Made by a program: the position numbers and the translations under genes. A stretch of 62,409 nucleotides of DNA, the filler included, from Candidatus Tectimicrobiota bacterium (GTDB lineage Bacteria > JACPSX01), in assembly GCA_016193065.1 (NCBI GenBank). It is 7 parts of 7 records of this genome, joined end to end, with 100 filler letters (N's around TTAATTAATTAA, not from the genome) between each part and the next. Parts side by side here need not be neighbours in the genome. Positions count along the whole stretch, not along the records: positions 6,225 to 24,056 come from JACPSX010000259.1; 6 more parts are not named here. The stretch is one strand, 5' to 3'. Below the pieces are notes generated by a model. It made no database searches and was not told the DNA's origin. It was given only the letters and a program-made list of their open reading frames with translations. Below are positions 6,125 to 59,298 of the stretch, piece by piece (position 1 is the first letter of the stretch; each line of letters begins with the position of its first letter).

Positions 6125-6224
6125 NNNNNNNNNNNNNNNNNNNNNNNNNNNNNNNNNNNNNNNNNNNNTTAATTAATTAANNNNNNNNNNNNNNNNNNNN
6201 NNNNNNNNNNNNNNNNNNNNNNNN
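6125..6224. other. Artificial contig linker
   Basis: N-run, TTAATTAATTAA (stops in all six frames), N-run. Confidence 0.98.
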
Positions 6225-9263: not shown

Positions 9264-10235
9264 TCACCGCGCGACAGGGAGGCCGGGATCGGCCGCCCAC
9301 TCCACGAACGAGCCATCGTACAGGCGCACCTTCGGATACCCCAGGAGACGCAGCACAAAGTAGGTGTGGGAAGCGCGGACGCCCGTCCGGCAGTACACCA
9401 GGATCTCCTTGTCCGGCGTTACGCCCGCCCTGCGATACAGGCGCGCCAGCTCCGCGCCAGCCTTGAACCGCCGGGTCTCCGTTGGGGTGAGGTTTCGCAC
9501 CCAGTCCACGTTCACGGCCCCGGGGATGTGCCCGGGGCGCGACACTTCTCTCCCCGGGACCTCCCCATCGAATTCCTCGGGGGAGCGGCTATCCACCAGC
9601 ACCGCCGCGGGGTCGTCCAGGCGGGCCTTTACCCAAGCTGCGTCCGCAAGCCTGGTGGAATCAGGCGCCGCGCGATAGCGCGTGACCAGCGGTTGTGACG
9701 GATCACGGGCGACCGGCCGGCCCTCCCGCTGCCACAGCCCGAATCCCCCTTGCAGAACGCTCACCCGGGGGTGACCCATGAAATCCAGAGCCCAGAACAA
9801 CCGGGTCGCCTGATCGCCGCCGAAGTCGTCATAGATGACCACCCGGCTCTCGCGTGTTACCCCCCGGGCCCCCAGCGCCTGCTCCACCTCCCGGACGGGG
9901 GTCAGCATCCCGGGGACCCCGTTGATGGTCCGGCTAACCTCGGCGACGGGCAGGTTGACCGCGCCTGGAATGTGGCCGGCAGCGTACCGCTCCGGGCTGC
10001 GGGCATCGAGGATCCGGACCCCGGCTTCCCCGAGGTGGTCGGCCACCTCCTGTCCAGAGGCGAGGAGCGCCGCGTTCCCATAACCCTGGGCCTTCGCCTG
10101 GTCCCCCCAGCACTGCGCGTATCCTGTCGACGCGATCAGCAGCAGTACGGCAACCACTGCGCCGGCCCATGCCCACCGTTGTCTTACAGAGCTCAACACC
10201 GACCCCTCAGAGAAAAGCAGTCTCACCTTCTTCAT
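9264..10235 (-). CDS. Exported tandem-domain rhodanese sulfurtransferase (SseA/TST-like)
   Basis: Two GHIPGAVN repeats, active site YCRTGVRA, C-terminal LYDGSFVEW; N-terminal signal-like segment. Confidence 0.9.
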   Translation of the reverse strand: MKKVRLLFSEGSVLSSVRQRWAWAGAVVAVLLLIASTGYAQCWGDQAKAQGYGNAALLASGQEVADHLGEAGVRILDARSPERYAAGHIPGAVNLPVAEVSRTINGVPGMLTPVREVEQALGARGVTRESRVVIYDDFGGDQATRLFWALDFMGHPRVSVLQGGFGLWQREGRPVARDPSQPLVTRYRAAPDSTRLADAAWVKARLDDPAAVLVDSRSPEEFDGEVPGREVSRPGHIPGAVNVDWVRNLTPTETRRFKAGAELARLYRRAGVTPDKEILVYCRTGVRASHTYFVLRLLGYPKVRLYDGSFVEWAADPGLPVAR

Positions 10236-10318
10236 GGGCCATCTCCCCAGTCAGGAGGAGGATCGAGGCACCTCCAGAAAACGGATCAAGATTGGAAATC
10301 AGCGTTCGCCGGGGTGGA

Positions 10319-10597
10319 TCAGGCAGGCAATTCGGGGGGATGATCGATGGACTGAGCCAGGGACCAGATTGGATAGACCTCAGGCAAAGAACTTACGCCT
10401 GCATCCGGAAAAGCGTAGGGCACAAGAACAACCGGAAGGGGGATCTCCACGGAGCCGGCATTCAGGATGCCGCAGAAATCGCTGCTGCTCTGAGCAGGCG
10501 CAGTCGTCGCTGCTTCTGTACCCGGCACATCGAAGGCACAAAGGACGACCATTATAGTGAACAGGAGCAGGAAAATCTTTGCAGAATCAGATTTCAC
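10319..10597 (-). CDS. Small secreted/membrane leader ORF ending IDHPP (candidate CutF/DUF2946-like regulatory peptide)
   Basis: 92 aa: hydrophobic N-terminus ending in Cys, SSSDFC, Pro-rich tail SIDHPPELPA; first ORF of the sulfurtransferase block. Confidence 0.6.
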   Translation of the reverse strand: MKSDSAKIFLLLFTIMVVLCAFDVPGTEAATTAPAQSSSDFCGILNAGSVEIPLPVVLVPYAFPDAGVSSLPEVYPIWSLAQSIDHPPELPA

Positions 10598-19277: not shown

Positions 19278-19697
19278 TCAGGGACTGGCAATAAATTTCT
19301 CCATGTAGCCTTTGGCTTCCTTACTGGCCCAATCCCGACTCCCGACGGCCTCGGCGGCAACCCTGCCGAGACGGTCAATCAGATAGGTCGTGGGTATCCC
19401 CCGCACCCTGTAGAGCGAAGCGACGGCTCCATCCCGATCGAGCAGCGGAGTGAAGGTCAAATTCAATTGTTGGAAGAAATCCTTCACCCGTTCGGGCCTC
19501 TCCCGGATATCAACCGCCAGCATGACCAAGCCCCGGTCTTTATAGAGATTGTACAGCTTCTCCATGGACGGCATTTCCCGGCGGCAGGGGGGACACCATG
19601 TGGCCCAGAAGTTAACAAAGATAACGTTCCCTCGCAAGTCCTTCAGTCGAACTTTTCGGCCATTTAAGTCAGGAAGCGTGAAATCCGGAGCCTCCAC
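19278..19697 (-). CDS. TlpA/ResA-family thiol-disulfide oxidoreductase (N-terminus uncertain or lost)
   Basis: APDFTL.DLNG, VNFWATWCPPCRREMP, GIPTTYLID; no signal or TM segment between it and the oxidase stop. Confidence 0.82.
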   Translation of the reverse strand: MEAPDFTLPDLNGRKVRLKDLRGNVIFVNFWATWCPPCRREMPSMEKLYNLYKDRGLVMLAVDIRERPERVKDFFQQLNLTFTPLLDRDGAVASLYRVRGIPTTYLIDRLGRVAAEAVGSRDWASKEAKGYMEKFIASP

Positions 19698-19750
19698 CTT
19701 CTCTTTAAGTACTTGCAGCCGCAGGGCAGAGGCATAAGGGACCGACCCGG

Positions 19751-21265
19751 CTAGGCTACCCCTCTGTACTCGAACACGCTTGCCATGCCAGTGGCCAGGT
19801 GCCACTCGATGTGGCAGTGGAACAGCCAGCGCCCGGGGTTGGTGGCAGCCCACTGAAGCACAAGCGTATTTCTCGCCGGGACGTCCACCGTGTCCTTCAA
19901 CAGGGGATCGGTCAGGTTGAGACGGTCCGGCCTGCCCAGTACGTAGAACGAGTGGCCGTGCAGGTGCATCGGGTGATCCATTTCCGTGGGGTTCTCCAGG
20001 ACGAGACGGATCGATTCCCCCCGCTCAACCGGGATCGGGGAGGACTGGGGATAGGCCTGGCCGTTGATGGTCCACGAATACGGCGCCATGTTCCCACCCA
20101 TCTGCAGGGTCACCTGGCGAAACGGCGCCCGAGCAAGGTTCACCGGCTCCAGCGGGCGCAGCATGGCGAGGGTGAGCGCCCTGCGCCCCCACACCACCGG
20201 ACCCGGGCGCGGCTCGGCCGGGCGTGCACCCCGCGTGCGGAGGATCGCCCGGACCTCCTTGCCGTCCAGAGTGACCGCGCGAATCCAGTACGCGCCCGCC
20301 CGTTTTCCCTCCACGAGGACGTCGTAGCGCTCCCCAATGGAGACCAGCAGATTGTCCACCGTGACCGGCTTTACGGGGGTCCCGTCAGCGGCAATGACCG
20401 TAAGAGGGTGACCGTCGATCTGGAACCGGAACGCGTAGGTGGAAGAGGCGTTGATGATCCGGAACCGGATTCGCTGGCCCTGGCCCACCTCAAAGGTGGT
20501 CAGGGGGCTTTTGGTGTCGCCGGGCGCGCGTCCCCGGCCGTTGATCAGGCCCATCTCGAAGGGGACATCGGCAATGTCGGCCATCTCTTCCATCTTCATG
20601 CCCGGCATGTGCCCCATTTGCATCCCCTGCATTCCCCCCCTCTCCCCGGCACCTCCACGGATCAGGCCCTGGAGGATCTCCTCGGAAGGTTTGCGGAACC
20701 AGTCGTTGATCACCAGCACCTCGTCCCGGTCGTAGTTGCTCCGCTCCTCCCGGCGCTCGATGATCAGAGGGGCAAGGAGCCCCTCGGAGTATTGGACCCC
20801 CGTGTGGGAGTGGTACCAGTGAGTCCCTGCGGGGCTGGCGAGAAACTCGTAGATGAATTCGGCTCCAGGCGCGATCCCGGCCTGAGTGAGCCCTTCCACA
20901 CCATCCATCCGCCAGGTCCCGATCTGATGCAACCCGTGCCAATGAATCGTTGTGGGCCGGGCCAGTTCATTTTTCACGCGGATCCGAAACATGTCCCCCT
21001 CGGTGGCACGGATGATGGGGCCCGGTACTTGCCCGTTATAAGCCCAGACCTCCCGTTGAACCCCGTAAGGGGCTCCGGGCAGTATGCCTACCCGCAGAGA
21101 AAACGGGATGACCCGGCCTGCTTTTTCCTGGGCGTTTGCCTTTCCAACCGGGAGCCCTCCCACCAGCAATGGGCTGAGCAGTAGGGATCCTCCGGCAGCC
21201 CCCGTCACAGACAAAAACCGACGTCGACTCATAGAAAGATTCATCTTTCTGTGCTCATTTCGCAT
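19751..21265 (-). CDS. Tat-exported three-domain multicopper oxidase
   Basis: SRRRFL Tat motif; HWHG, WYHSH, HPMHLHG, HCHIEWHLATGM copper motifs; Met-rich insert GMQGMQMGHMPGMKM. Confidence 0.95.
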   Translation of the reverse strand: MRNEHRKMNLSMSRRRFLSVTGAAGGSLLLSPLLVGGLPVGKANAQEKAGRVIPFSLRVGILPGAPYGVQREVWAYNGQVPGPIIRATEGDMFRIRVKNELARPTTIHWHGLHQIGTWRMDGVEGLTQAGIAPGAEFIYEFLASPAGTHWYHSHTGVQYSEGLLAPLIIERREERSNYDRDEVLVINDWFRKPSEEILQGLIRGGAGERGGMQGMQMGHMPGMKMEEMADIADVPFEMGLINGRGRAPGDTKSPLTTFEVGQGQRIRFRIINASSTYAFRFQIDGHPLTVIAADGTPVKPVTVDNLLVSIGERYDVLVEGKRAGAYWIRAVTLDGKEVRAILRTRGARPAEPRPGPVVWGRRALTLAMLRPLEPVNLARAPFRQVTLQMGGNMAPYSWTINGQAYPQSSPIPVERGESIRLVLENPTEMDHPMHLHGHSFYVLGRPDRLNLTDPLLKDTVDVPARNTLVLQWAATNPGRWLFHCHIEWHLATGMASVFEYRGVA

Positions 21266-21378
21266 TGAGTAGCTCCTCGAACTTCTGTGAGAATCCGGCA
21301 CCAAACGGCTTACGACCGGCCCGTGCCGCCAACAACTCCAGCGAGCGGGTTCGATCGGAAAAGGAATCTGGCGAGGAC

Positions 21379-21627
21379 TTAGGATCGGGGCGGCCTGTAG
21401 GGAAGGGAGTCCATCCGGGGGGGCACGGGACGAGCAAAAAGCCAGGAACCCCAGATGATCGAGAGAAACAGGACGAGGCCAAAGGAGCCGATTGCCAGAG
21501 CCAGGCAGAAAGAGCTGTGGTCCTGGAGATGGGAAAAGGATGAAGCCAGCCCGCTGGAGGGGGCAACCAGGCAAACAATCCCGGATACAACAACAAAAAA
21601 GGCCAGCACACTCGCTGCGGTCTTCAT
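21379..21627 (-). CDS. Small leader ORF ending YRPPR (candidate CutF/DUF2946-like regulatory peptide)
   Basis: 82 aa from ATG 21627 with GAGGGGG RBS and its own promoter: hydrophobic N-terminus with Cys, HLQDHSSFC, second hydrophobic stretch, Pro-rich tail PVPPRMDSLPYRPPRS. Confidence 0.68.
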   Translation of the reverse strand: MKTAASVLAFFVVVSGIVCLVAPSSGLASSFSHLQDHSSFCLALAIGSFGLVLFLSIIWGSWLFARPVPPRMDSLPYRPPRS

Positions 21628-21658
21628 TGTCCCCCTCTGGTCTAAAAGTTCGTGTTTC

Positions 21659-21687
21659 ATTTTAACGAAAACCAATCTCTTCGACAA
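21659..21687 (-). promoter_or_regulatory. sigma70-type promoter for the leader ORF/oxidase block
   Basis: Minus strand TTGTCG-N17-TAAAAT, about 30 nt upstream of ATG 21627. Confidence 0.5.
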
Positions 21688-21765
21688 CCGCATCCCCCAG
21701 AAAGTTCCCGCGATCCCCTTTCGGCGAAACTCTTCCCCGAGTTCCCTGTTGCCCGCAGGTCTTCT

Positions 21766-22104
21766 GTGATAGAATCCTCGAAAAACAGTCCGAGCCGAAT
21801 CGTCAGCGAGAGGGAAGAAGAATACTTCGCCCGCGTCGAGTTCGAGCGCAAGCAGAAGGAAGCCCAGGAGCGGGAAGCAAAGCTCAAGGAAGAGGAACGC
21901 CGGCAGCGCAAGGCCCTCCACTTCATGTGCTGTCCCAAGTGCGGCATGGAGCTCATCGAGATCGAGTACAAAGGGGTGAAGATCGATAAGTGCAGCGACT
22001 GCGCGGGAGTGTGGTTGGATTGCGGGGAATTGGAACGGATACTCGGCACGGACAGGAATTTCCTCGCAGAAATGCTGGACATCTTCCGCCGCAAAACCGA
22101 TTAG
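21766..22104 (+). CDS. zf-TFIIB zinc-ribbon domain protein (start uncertain)
   Basis: SEREEEYFAR coiled coil, then CPKCG..IDKCSDCAGVWLDCGELE. Confidence 0.8.
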   Translation: MIESSKNSPSRIVSEREEEYFARVEFERKQKEAQEREAKLKEEERRQRKALHFMCCPKCGMELIEIEYKGVKIDKCSDCAGVWLDCGELERILGTDRNFLAEMLDIFRRKTD

Positions 22105-22335: not shown

Positions 22336-22665
22336 TTACCGTCCTAGGTCCTCGCTCCGAGGACGACCCCGGAGGTATCCTGTCAGATCCCCGTAAAAGT
22401 TCTCATGCACCCCCACGTCCAGAACTTCAATCACGTTGGACTTGGGAAAGAAGTGGTAAGCCAGGAGATACTGGTGATCACCCCCGCGGAACTTGACTAC
22501 TCGCACCCCTTTAAGCGCCCCGGTCTTTGGCTCTCCGAGTAACGGGTCCCCCACGATGGCCCTTACCTGTCCATCCACAGCATCTTGGATTGCGCCAGGC
22601 AGCCTCCGCTTGGCCCTTCGGAATCGGGGAACCTGCTGAACCCTTCGAGGCGAAGTCTCATTCAC
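22336..22665 (-). CDS. RelE/ParE-like toxin
   Basis: GEPKTGALKGVRVVKF..YLLAY..VGVHENFY; GTGA overlap with the antitoxin. Confidence 0.85.
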   Translation of the reverse strand: MNETSPRRVQQVPRFRRAKRRLPGAIQDAVDGQVRAIVGDPLLGEPKTGALKGVRVVKFRGGDHQYLLAYHFFPKSNVIEVLDVGVHENFYGDLTGYLRGRPRSEDLGR

Positions 22666-22937
22666 CCGATCCGTCCCCACTGGTAGGGTTCAGCGAGTCC
22701 CGTCCGGCTTTCCTCCAACCCCTCCAGGATCCCTTCGATGAAACTCATAGGGAGATCCGGGTTCTCCTTTCCCATCATCCCCAGGTGAGCATAGTACTTG
22801 ATTTGTTCCGAGAGGGATCGCTTGCTTGCCCGGGCTCGCGCCCGCAGGACCCGTACCATCGGTTCGTCGTCCTTTCGGAACCGGATCGACACAGGAGTAC
22901 TGATCCCTGTTGCCCTTTTCCTGGCTGTCTTCGCCAT
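22662..22937 (-). CDS. ParD-like antitoxin
   Basis: RSLSEQIKYYAHLG..ENPDLPMSFIEGIL; directly upstream of the toxin. Confidence 0.8.
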   Translation of the reverse strand: MAKTARKRATGISTPVSIRFRKDDEPMVRVLRARARASKRSLSEQIKYYAHLGMMGKENPDLPMSFIEGILEGLEESRTGLAEPYQWGRIG

Positions 22938-24056: not shown

Positions 24057-24156
24057 NNNNNNNNNNNNNNNNNNNNNNNNNNNNNNNNNNNNNNNNNNNN
24101 TTAATTAATTAANNNNNNNNNNNNNNNNNNNNNNNNNNNNNNNNNNNNNNNNNNNN
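24057..24156. other. Artificial contig linker
   Basis: N-run, TTAATTAATTAA, N-run. Confidence 0.98.
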
Positions 24157-41273: not shown

Positions 41274-41373
41274 NNNNNNNNNNNNNNNNNNNNNNNNNNN
41301 NNNNNNNNNNNNNNNNNTTAATTAATTAANNNNNNNNNNNNNNNNNNNNNNNNNNNNNNNNNNNNNNNNNNNN
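41274..41373. other. Artificial contig linker
   Basis: N-run, TTAATTAATTAA, N-run. Confidence 0.98.
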
Positions 41374-50072: not shown

Positions 50073-50172
50073 NNNNNNNNNNNNNNNNNNNNNNNNNNNN
50101 NNNNNNNNNNNNNNNNTTAATTAATTAANNNNNNNNNNNNNNNNNNNNNNNNNNNNNNNNNNNNNNNNNNNN
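50073..50172. other. Artificial contig linker
   Basis: N-run, TTAATTAATTAA, N-run. Confidence 0.98.
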
Positions 50173-55151: not shown

Positions 55152-55251
55152 NNNNNNNNNNNNNNNNNNNNNNNNNNNNNNNNNNNNNNNNNNNNTTAAT
55201 TAATTAANNNNNNNNNNNNNNNNNNNNNNNNNNNNNNNNNNNNNNNNNNNN
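55152..55251. other. Artificial contig linker
   Basis: N-run, TTAATTAATTAA, N-run. Confidence 0.98.
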
Positions 55252-59198: not shown

Positions 59199-59298
59199 NN
59201 NNNNNNNNNNNNNNNNNNNNNNNNNNNNNNNNNNNNNNNNNNTTAATTAATTAANNNNNNNNNNNNNNNNNNNNNNNNNNNNNNNNNNNNNNNNNNNN
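59199..59298. other. Artificial contig linker
   Basis: N-run, TTAATTAATTAA, N-run. Confidence 0.98.

Follow-up and report, generated by a model that had tools for sequence, protein, structure and literature searches.

A possible copper-sensing leader peptide upstream of a multicopper oxidase gene in Candidatus Tectimicrobiota

Does the small open reading frame (ORF) upstream of a multicopper oxidase gene in Candidatus Tectimicrobiota bacterium (assembly GCA_016193065.1) report copper to the ribosome that translates it? The locus is part of a stretch of 62,409 nucleotides (nt), here called the window. Copper-sensing leader peptides such as CutF, CruR and CopL represent a recently described way in which periplasmic or cytoplasmic metal is reported to the ribosome. 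To our knowledge, detailed studies exist for only two of these leaders, which are members of a single protein family. A previous sequence-only reading of the locus had interpreted the ORF, which encodes 82 amino acids (aa), as a leader resembling CutF of Rhodobacter capsulatus, with an RNA stem that hides the oxidase's Shine-Dalgarno (SD) sequence and is opened by a ribosome stalled at Pro-Pro codons. Based on our analysis, we tentatively favor, as possible rather than probable, a copper-sensing leader of the CutF/CruR type that acts in cis, is specific to the lineage and would control the oxidase gene 113 nt downstream on the same strand. The case as a whole is plausible but unproven; the kind of element is known, and if real this one would be a variant unrelated in sequence to the known family. 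The weakest part of the evidence is the stem that stood at the center of the earlier case.

The predicted leader starts with Met-Lys, followed by a 20-residue hydrophobic stretch (residues 3–22), small residues (GLA/SS) and a short polar loop. This N-terminus passes a hydropathy rule for signals and is predicted to be helical from residue 4 to 21, and the stretch is long enough to act as a membrane anchor instead. A second hydrophobic stretch of 25 residues (40–64) carries an H-x3-H-x3-C motif at its start. C19, H33, H37 and C41 are present, neither CxxC nor CxxxC occurs, and H33, H37 and C41 would be the candidate metal ligands. AlphaFold2 without an alignment predicts helices at 4–21 and 32–65, the latter with the three putative ligands at its start, and an unstructured tail (mean predicted local distance difference test score, 68.9). 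The C-terminal tail, ARPVPPRMDSLPYRPPRS, holds two Pro-Pro pairs, P69-P70 and P79-P80, both within the last 15 residues. From the last of these Pro codons (21390–21388), ten bases lead to TCCTCG, the exact complement of the CGAGGA in the oxidase SD. The ribosome-binding site in front of the ORF, the ORF itself with its end LPYRPPRS-TAA, the TCCTCG one base past the stop, its distance from the Pro-Pro codons, the inner CGGCAC/GTGCCG complementarity, the unusual Cys/His motif with a second hydrophobic segment and the multicopper oxidase downstream had all been noted before, and each was found again by direct reading or counting.

Codon usage suggests that the ORF is a gene. In a codon model trained on the 28 Pfam-confirmed genes of the window, with scores expressed as log-likelihood in bits per codon, the leader frame reaches +0.19 and is the best of six, the other five ranging from −0.63 to +0.06. 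This value is above the 95th percentile of off-frame windows (−0.14) but below the in-frame mean of 0.46. The oxidase frame and the third frame are likewise open over much of the leader stretch; the oxidase frame is open upstream to 21574, and across the leader both frames have negative codon scores. Among 1534 ORF variants of the window (start to stop, 40–149 aa), 136 (8.9%) have Pro-Pro in the last 15 residues and eight have a signal-like N-terminus, three of the eight being starts of the leader ORF. Both features occur together in five variants, namely the three leader starts, one start within an MFS transporter gene, and another small ORF at 10597..10319. The combination of features in the leader ORF is moderately beyond chance. 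In a language-model protein atlas, the leader obtains a “recognition” value of 2735, where 2300 is already reached by about 9 of 100 shuffled sequences versus 91 of 100 real families.

A feature missing from the earlier reading is a region of C over G excess, a so-called C>G bubble, that spans the leader stop. Its peak window (21430–21353) contains 36 C and 14 G in 78 nt and covers the last 17 leader codons plus 26 nt of the intergenic region. Of 12,254 windows on the two strands, 0.37% attain the resulting value of (C−G)/78 = 0.28, as do four of the 3188 sense-strand windows of the 28 confident genes. Part of the C excess is due to the Pro, Ser and Leu codons of the leader tail. The same 78-nt measure has been applied to cruR, where a bubble that starts in the upstream ORF's 3′ end and reaches into an intergenic region of 162 bp marks the Rho utilization (rut) site of a Rho-dependent terminator, from which a ribosome stalled at RAPP keeps Rho off (PMC9426467). 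By analogy, the bubble across the stop of our candidate leader may act as a rut site.

These observations can be combined into a model. The leader would be translated from its own SD, which codon usage supports without proving it, and the N-terminal hydrophobic segment would bring the nascent chain to the membrane. With the ribosome at P79-P80-R-S-stop, the putative H33/H37/C41 site would lie just outside the exit tunnel and face the periplasm, since it is 39–47 residues back from this position, compared with 43–47 residues for its counterpart in CutF. Copper bound at this site might prolong the pause on the last codons, as has been reported for CutF, where periplasmic copper binding lengthens a stall at PPP and overrides elongation factor P (PMC9973294; bioRxiv 10.1101/2025.02.05.636593). 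The held ribosome would then cover the 3′ part of the tract, which is rich in C and poor in G, as well as the UCCUCG immediately behind the stop. Expression of the oxidase could thereby increase through one or both of two routes: Rho could be kept off the transcript, as in cruR and tnaC, or UCCUCG could be kept from pairing with the SD, as in cutF. As there is no thermodynamic support for the SD route and a single compositional outlier for the Rho route, we give both about equal weight.

Several results weigh against this model, and the first group concerns the isolation of the ORF. A word-index search with the leader returned two candidates and, as sole match, the leader itself; phmmer against 1,835,955,588 representative proteins (E up to 0.001) likewise matched only the leader, and tblastn against 72,556 plasmids returned nothing. 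Pfam searches at E up to 10 revealed no match to DUF2946, DUF6769 or CzcI. We also collected loci of related oxidases, one genome per species. This search yielded 30 loci, with whole-length matches of 27–56% identity and four partial ones with higher values; the nearest relatives (42–56% identical) come from Planctomycetota, Desulfomonilaceae, Methylomirabilota and Verrucomicrobiae. The 22 loci with sufficient upstream sequence were examined, and eight were left out that either begin at or near the match (L003, L015, L016 and L017) or match the last 25–58 residues only (L026, L028, L029 and L030). None of the 22 has a small ORF upstream that combines a signal-like N-terminus with a Pro-Pro tail. 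Because the leader has no relatives, conservation, covariation and selection cannot be shown for it.

Two database matches of the leader were rejected. The only Pfam match, TMEM43 (with the 82-aa form, 16.1 bits; with a 93-aa form from the upstream ATG at 21660, 20.6 bits), is below the gathering score of 23.3 and aligns over the hydrophobic helices, and was therefore regarded as compositional. The only NCBIfam match, MerTP_fusion, has 13.9 bits versus a cut-off of 180. In the language-model atlas, the leader is nearest to unnamed clusters (0.92–0.93), and the nearest named clusters (0.84–0.86) are DUF6769 (“DUF2946 domain-containing”), CzcI and DUF2946, with few shared features. These three are the families of the published metal-sensing leaders; by the tool's own calibration, the proximity to these three clusters is a lead only.

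The C-terminus itself is a further point of doubt, since its motif is Pro-Pro and neither PPP nor RAPP. In an Escherichia coli reporter RPP was non-stalling, whereas RPPP was the strongest of the XPPP motifs (PMC4176338). None of YRPP, RPPR, PVPP and RPVP from the leader tail fits the RAPP-like pattern (R/Q/H)-(A/G/D)-(P/G/S)-(P/G), and most RAPP-like motifs in ordinary proteins did not stall (PMC10987492). Moreover, the second hydrophobic segment lies between the candidate metal site and the tail and, unlike in CutF, would stay within the exit tunnel at the pause. Regarding the Rho route, the C>G level of 0.28 is also met in 12 other stretches of the window.

The evidence is poorest for the stem that was proposed to hide the oxidase SD. 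When the intergenic region was shuffled 5000 times with dinucleotides preserved, 14.4% of the shuffles had a complement of at least 6 nt that covers the SD core, and 1.7% had one that also starts within 10 nt of the stop. Folding of 21381–21263 gave z = −0.24, with 72 of 200 shuffles at least as stable. For 21400–21250 we obtained z = +0.88, with 163 of 200 shuffles at least as stable. The inner hairpin is present in the minimum-energy fold of the former and absent from that of the latter. When the intergenic region is folded alone, UCCUC:GAGGA closes a three-way junction in which five pairs have probabilities of 0.70–0.84 and the sixth 0.04, and addition of 20–60 nt of the leader reduces the anti-SD pairing to about 0.1. 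Nine 5′ ends were combined with six 3′ ends to give 54 contexts. The helix is favored (0.60–0.79) in 12 of them, whose 5′ end lies at 21390 or beyond and whose 3′ end does not extend past 21230, and is at or below 0.36 in the other 42. Once the complete leader is included, or over 65 nt of the oxidase gene, it drops to about zero. As alternative partners, the SD pairs with Pro codons of the leader (GCCCC, 21390–21386) or with 21219–21226 within the oxidase gene. In the context 21440–21230, enforcing the helix costs 1.3 kcal/mol relative to the minimum.

The SD is also not exceptionally sequestered. With the SD fixed and the 101 nt upstream of it shuffled, mean pairing of GAGGA is 0.856 compared to 0.737 ± 0.148 in 500 shuffles, 21% of which reach the observed value, and a pairing of 0.85 is reached by five of 33 other SD sites of the window. 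To model the held ribosome, a 27-nt footprint was masked at each leader codon of the transcript 21652–21170 and the energy needed to open 21280–21260 was calculated. This energy is 9.1 kcal/mol without a ribosome and 10.0–10.1 kcal/mol with a ribosome at P80, R81 or S82. Over all contexts it amounts to 9.8–11.2 kcal/mol with a ribosome at P79, P80 or the stop versus 9.1–10.2 kcal/mol without one, and in three shorter contexts freeing the whole leader together with the anti-SD shifts it by at most 0.5 kcal/mol. The oxidase start site, at 8.25 kcal/mol in a frame of −150 to +50, is less closed than 26 of 34 control sites (mean 10.7 ± 3.75 kcal/mol). Thus, the stem is without statistical or thermodynamic support and no better than chance, and the claim that the footprint of a stalled ribosome opens the oxidase start was not borne out by the calculations. 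Equilibrium folding cannot exclude a kinetically trapped stem; it lends the stem no support.

Part of this evidence would be equally expected if the ORF encoded a real small membrane protein with two hydrophobic segments, co-expressed with the oxidase, for instance as a copper-binding or anchoring accessory, and without a regulatory role, so that the Pro-Pro tail and the TCCTCG complement were incidental. The codon preference for the leader frame, the two predicted helices, which may form a hairpin, the frequency of Pro-Pro tails in this GC-rich window (136 of 1534 variants), a stem that does not exceed chance and the report of non-stalling RPP (PMC4176338) all agree with such a protein. However, phmmer, Pfam and NCBIfam revealed no family of such accessory proteins, the ORF is not conserved at the 22 related oxidase loci, and the series of signal-like N-terminus, Cys/His motif, PP-R-x-stop, anti-SD and bubble in front of a copper oxidase fits the described regulatory class, so that we consider an accessory protein rather unlikely, if a serious contender. 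It is also unlikely, in our view, that the ORF is not translated at all and that 21266–21650 is a long 5′ untranslated region of the oxidase with a frame that is open by chance. An orphan sequence, a weak promoter match, a codon score below the mean of known genes and two further frames that are open across much of the stretch would be in line with this. On the other hand, the leader frame is the best of six and exceeds the off-frame 95th percentile, it has its own SD at a proper distance, few chance ORFs have hydrophobic stretches of 20 and 25 residues (eight of 1534 variants have a signal-like N-terminus), and the leader obtains 2735 for “recognition” in the atlas.

The mechanism of the sequence-only reading as the whole explanation, with a long-range UCCUCG:CGAGGA stem that melts only under a ribosome stalled at RPP and with no part for Rho, appears very unlikely to us. 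It has a precedent in cutF-cutO (PMC9973294), and the exact 6-nt complement one base past the stop, the five strong pairs in the isolated intergenic region and the small energy difference of 1.3 kcal/mol for the enforced helix speak for it. Yet the helix is lost in 42 of 54 contexts, masking of the footprint does not unmask the SD, the start site is not unusually closed, and a fifth of the shuffles (21%) sequester the SD as well. In addition, the loop would comprise about 95 nt, compared to a region of 40 bp in R. capsulatus, and melting of the stem-loop is expected only for short intergenic regions (PMC9973294).

A more far-reaching version, which we regard as improbable, is that the leader is a nascent-chain copper sensor that evolved independently and has no DUF2946 kin, with a membrane hairpin and a dual output. 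Here, a periplasm-facing H-x3-H-x3-C would report copper to the ribosome at a diproline two codons before the stop, and the paused ribosome would cover both the rut-like C-rich tract and the anti-SD right after the stop. If this were true, control of the CutF/CruR type would arise repeatedly from scratch and also in a membrane-anchored form. We also observed that the second Pro codon is CCC and is followed by C (21390–21387), where a +1 slip would lead into the third frame. This frame is open through the whole intergenic region to a TGA at 21257–21255, 8 nt past the oxidase ATG. As an even more daring idea, a slip at CCC-C might couple initiation of the oxidase directly to the pause.

A working leader unrelated to the known ones would imply that the principle is wider than one family and works with a His/His/Cys site, an additional membrane segment, no more than a diproline, and an extended intergenic region. 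Homology searches would then undercount copper-sensing leaders, and the locus would offer a natural case for separating SD unmasking from Rho blocking. If the ORF encodes an ordinary membrane protein or is untranslated, it is a look-alike only, and would call for caution, as Pro codons and C-rich tails readily give rise to apparent anti-SD sequences when a genome is GC-rich.

The oxidase, the putative target, contains the Pfam domains Cu-oxidase_3, Cu-oxidase and Cu-oxidase_2 (E-values of 1e-32 to 3e-44), and its best NCBIfam model is copper_res_A with 292 bits, below the cut-off of 479. The model TAT_signal_seq for export by the twin-arginine translocation (Tat) pathway scores 16.7 bits, exactly at its cut-off, and an alignment shows the RR motif at an equal position in the oxidase and six homologues. 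A possible second start is the ATG at 21244, and homologues often have a Met 6–8 residues before RR; this ATG is without a comparable SD and sits in the loop of a small hairpin (AGAAAGAUGAAUCUUUCU). The next gene after the oxidase (19853–19278, minus strand) encodes a thioredoxin-like protein with an AhpC-TSA/Redoxin match and a WCPPC motif, and scores 22.7 bits with SCO1/SenC versus a cut-off of 22.8. As the sequence from the oxidase stop to the thioredoxin-like domain does not encode a hydrophobic N-terminus, the protein is either cytoplasmic or truncated at its N-terminus.

Upstream of the leader, the sequence-only reading had also postulated a promoter. A promoter-like site is present, but a scan of 19600–22100 gave one site versus 0.5 ± 0.8 in shuffles, which is weak evidence. 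Transcription would start about 7 nt downstream of this site, which would exclude the in-frame upstream ATG of the 93-aa form. A scan of 21240–21800 for inverted repeats that could serve as operators revealed three pairs, none of them in the promoter region. Among these repeats, one of 14 nt (21317–21330/21419–21432, 86% complementary) would pair the RPVP codons of the leader with the 5′ arm of the inner hairpin, and 67 nt into the leader there is a 7-nt stretch (CCCCCTC) that exactly complements its own SD (21557–21563/21631–21637); both may be due to chance in C/G-rich sequence. Rfam had no family match in 21000–22000 at E up to 1. The divergent gene at 21652–22104 (plus strand) encodes a TFIIB-type zinc-ribbon protein (Pfam Zn_ribbon_TFIIB, E = 3.7e-14), whose likely start is about 110–140 nt from that of the leader ORF; we know of no link of such proteins to copper. 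The surroundings resemble an accessory region, with genes for a ParE/ParD pair (22336–22937), an XRE regulator, an AbiEii-like ATPase and an SNF2 fragment. Paired runs of N indicate that the window consists of several contigs set end to end.

The second small ORF with a signal-like N-terminus and a Pro-Pro tail (10597..10319, minus strand) has a GTG start and 92 aa, ends in ..SIDHPPELPA and precedes a double-rhodanese gene (10235..9264) by 83 nt; it is probably the first leader peptide of the sequence-only reading. In a minimum-energy structure of this region (10225–10345), the GGGGAG SD in front of the rhodanese gene is paired with the codons for His-Pro-Pro. This fold has z = +0.49, with 128 of 200 shuffles equally stable, and no family match was obtained with the ORF.

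Table 1. Position of the leader/oxidase locus and its elements in the window.
Feature	Position	Strand	Remarks
Leader/oxidase locus	contig piece 6225–24056	−	all locus features on the minus strand
Promoter-like site TTGTCG-17-TAAAAT	21687..21659	−	9/12 matches
Leader SD-like sequence AGAGGGGG	21638–21631	−	3 nt before ATG 21627; direct reading
Leader ORF	ATG 21627 to TAA 21381–21379	−	82 aa, C-terminus ..DSLPYRPPRS
H33-x3-H37-x3-C41 codons	21531..21505	−	CAU 21531, CAC 21519, UGC 21507; candidate metal site
C>G bubble	21450–21333	−	last ~24 leader codons and first 46 nt of intergenic region; candidate rut region
First Pro-Pro, P69 P70 (CCC CCC)	21423–21418	−	context RPVPPR
Second Pro-Pro, P79 P80 (CCG CCC)	21393–21388	−	followed by Arg, Ser, stop; candidate pause site
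Anti-SD TCCTCG	21377–21372	−	one base past leader stop; exact complement of CGAGGA 21279–21274
Inner hairpin CGGCAC 21328–21323 / GTGCCG 21301–21296	21328..21296	−	complementary arms
Oxidase SD CGAGGAG	21279–21273	−	GAGGAG 7 nt before ATG 21265
Multicopper oxidase	21265..19751	−	504 aa, Tat motif SRRRFL, Met-rich insert (GGMQGMQMGHMPGMKMEEM)
N spacers joining contigs	6125–6224, 24057–24156, 41274–41373, 50073–50172, 55152–55251, 59199–59298		

How closely does the locus resemble leaders that are known to act? CutF of R. capsulatus has 118 aa, a Sec signal, a C69xxxC73 motif and a C-terminal ...GPPPRL, and is encoded 40 bp before cutO in the cutFOG operon (PMC8456105). Its signal is targeted by the signal recognition particle, and a stem-loop covers the SD of the Tat-exported oxidase cutO (PMC9973294). 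CutF-like ORFs have been collected by filters for fewer than 150 aa, Pro-Pro among the final 15 residues, a signal peptide and a neighbor on the same strand at under 1000 nt, and the published clusters include Cys, His and mixed motifs (PMC9973294). The leader passes the filters for size (82 aa), tail and neighbor (113 nt), and its N-terminus is signal-like as judged by hydropathy. It shares with CutF-CutO a small ORF with a putative N-terminal export signal and a central Cys/His motif, a Pro-Pro two residues from the C-terminus followed by Arg (PP-R-x-stop compared to ...PPPRL), the cis position directly upstream of a Tat-exported multicopper oxidase, and an SD complement between the two genes. 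The distance from the last ligand to the first Pro is also similar, with 37 residues compared to 40 in CutF and 47 in CruR, or about one exit-tunnel length.

In contrast to CutF, the leader has 82 instead of 118 aa, H-x3-H-x3-C instead of CxxxC, diprolines only (PVPPR and YRPPR) instead of PPP, and a second hydrophobic segment between motif and tail. The intergenic region of 113 nt with long-range multibranch pairing differs from the 40-bp region with a local stem-loop, and a length below 100 nt is typical of the class (PMC9973294). The gene after the oxidase is thioredoxin-like here and cutG there. Hence, the match to cutF-cutO that the sequence-only reading had proposed holds for the architecture, whereas sequence relatedness to CutF-like proteins was searched for by Pfam (DUF2946, DUF6769 and CzcI) and phmmer and was not found.

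The DUF2946 prototype CruR (Bp2923), encoded upstream of BfrG in Bordetella pertussis, resembles the leader in its position as an upstream ORF, an N-terminal signal (signal-like in the leader), a metal motif (a candidate one in the leader), Pro-Pro as arrest motif three residues before the C-terminal end, an extended intergenic region (162 bp compared to 113 nt) and the C>G bubble that begins in the 3′ end of the ORF (PMC9426467). It is distinguished by CXXC and RAPP, neither of which is present here, and by a spacing of 45 ± 1–2 residues between them in the family versus 36 between C41 and R78; a Pfam match to the CruR/DUF2946 family profile was not obtained with the leader. The sign of regulation would also differ, as copper relieves the CruR arrest and thereby turns an importer off (PMC9426467), while control of an oxidase would need the opposite. 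CopL-CopA of Xanthomonas and Stenotrophomonas provides a further parallel, in which a small, cis-acting upstream gene is needed for a copper-regulated CopA-type oxidase (PMC9973294). This likeness is drawn from a published summary alone, and copper_res_A is the best model of the oxidase in the window.

Outside of copper sensing, a ribosome held near the stop of a short leader blocks Rho in TnaC-tnaA. In SecM, a stalled ribosome opens a stem that hides an SD (bioRxiv 10.1101/2025.02.05.636593), and MifM-type leaders combine an N-terminal membrane segment with a C-terminal arrest sequence (PMC10987492). Ligands and arrest motifs of these systems are different from those proposed here, and the downstream gene of our locus does not belong to the protein-export machinery; common to all of them would be that a ribosome held at or near the leader stop controls the gene downstream.

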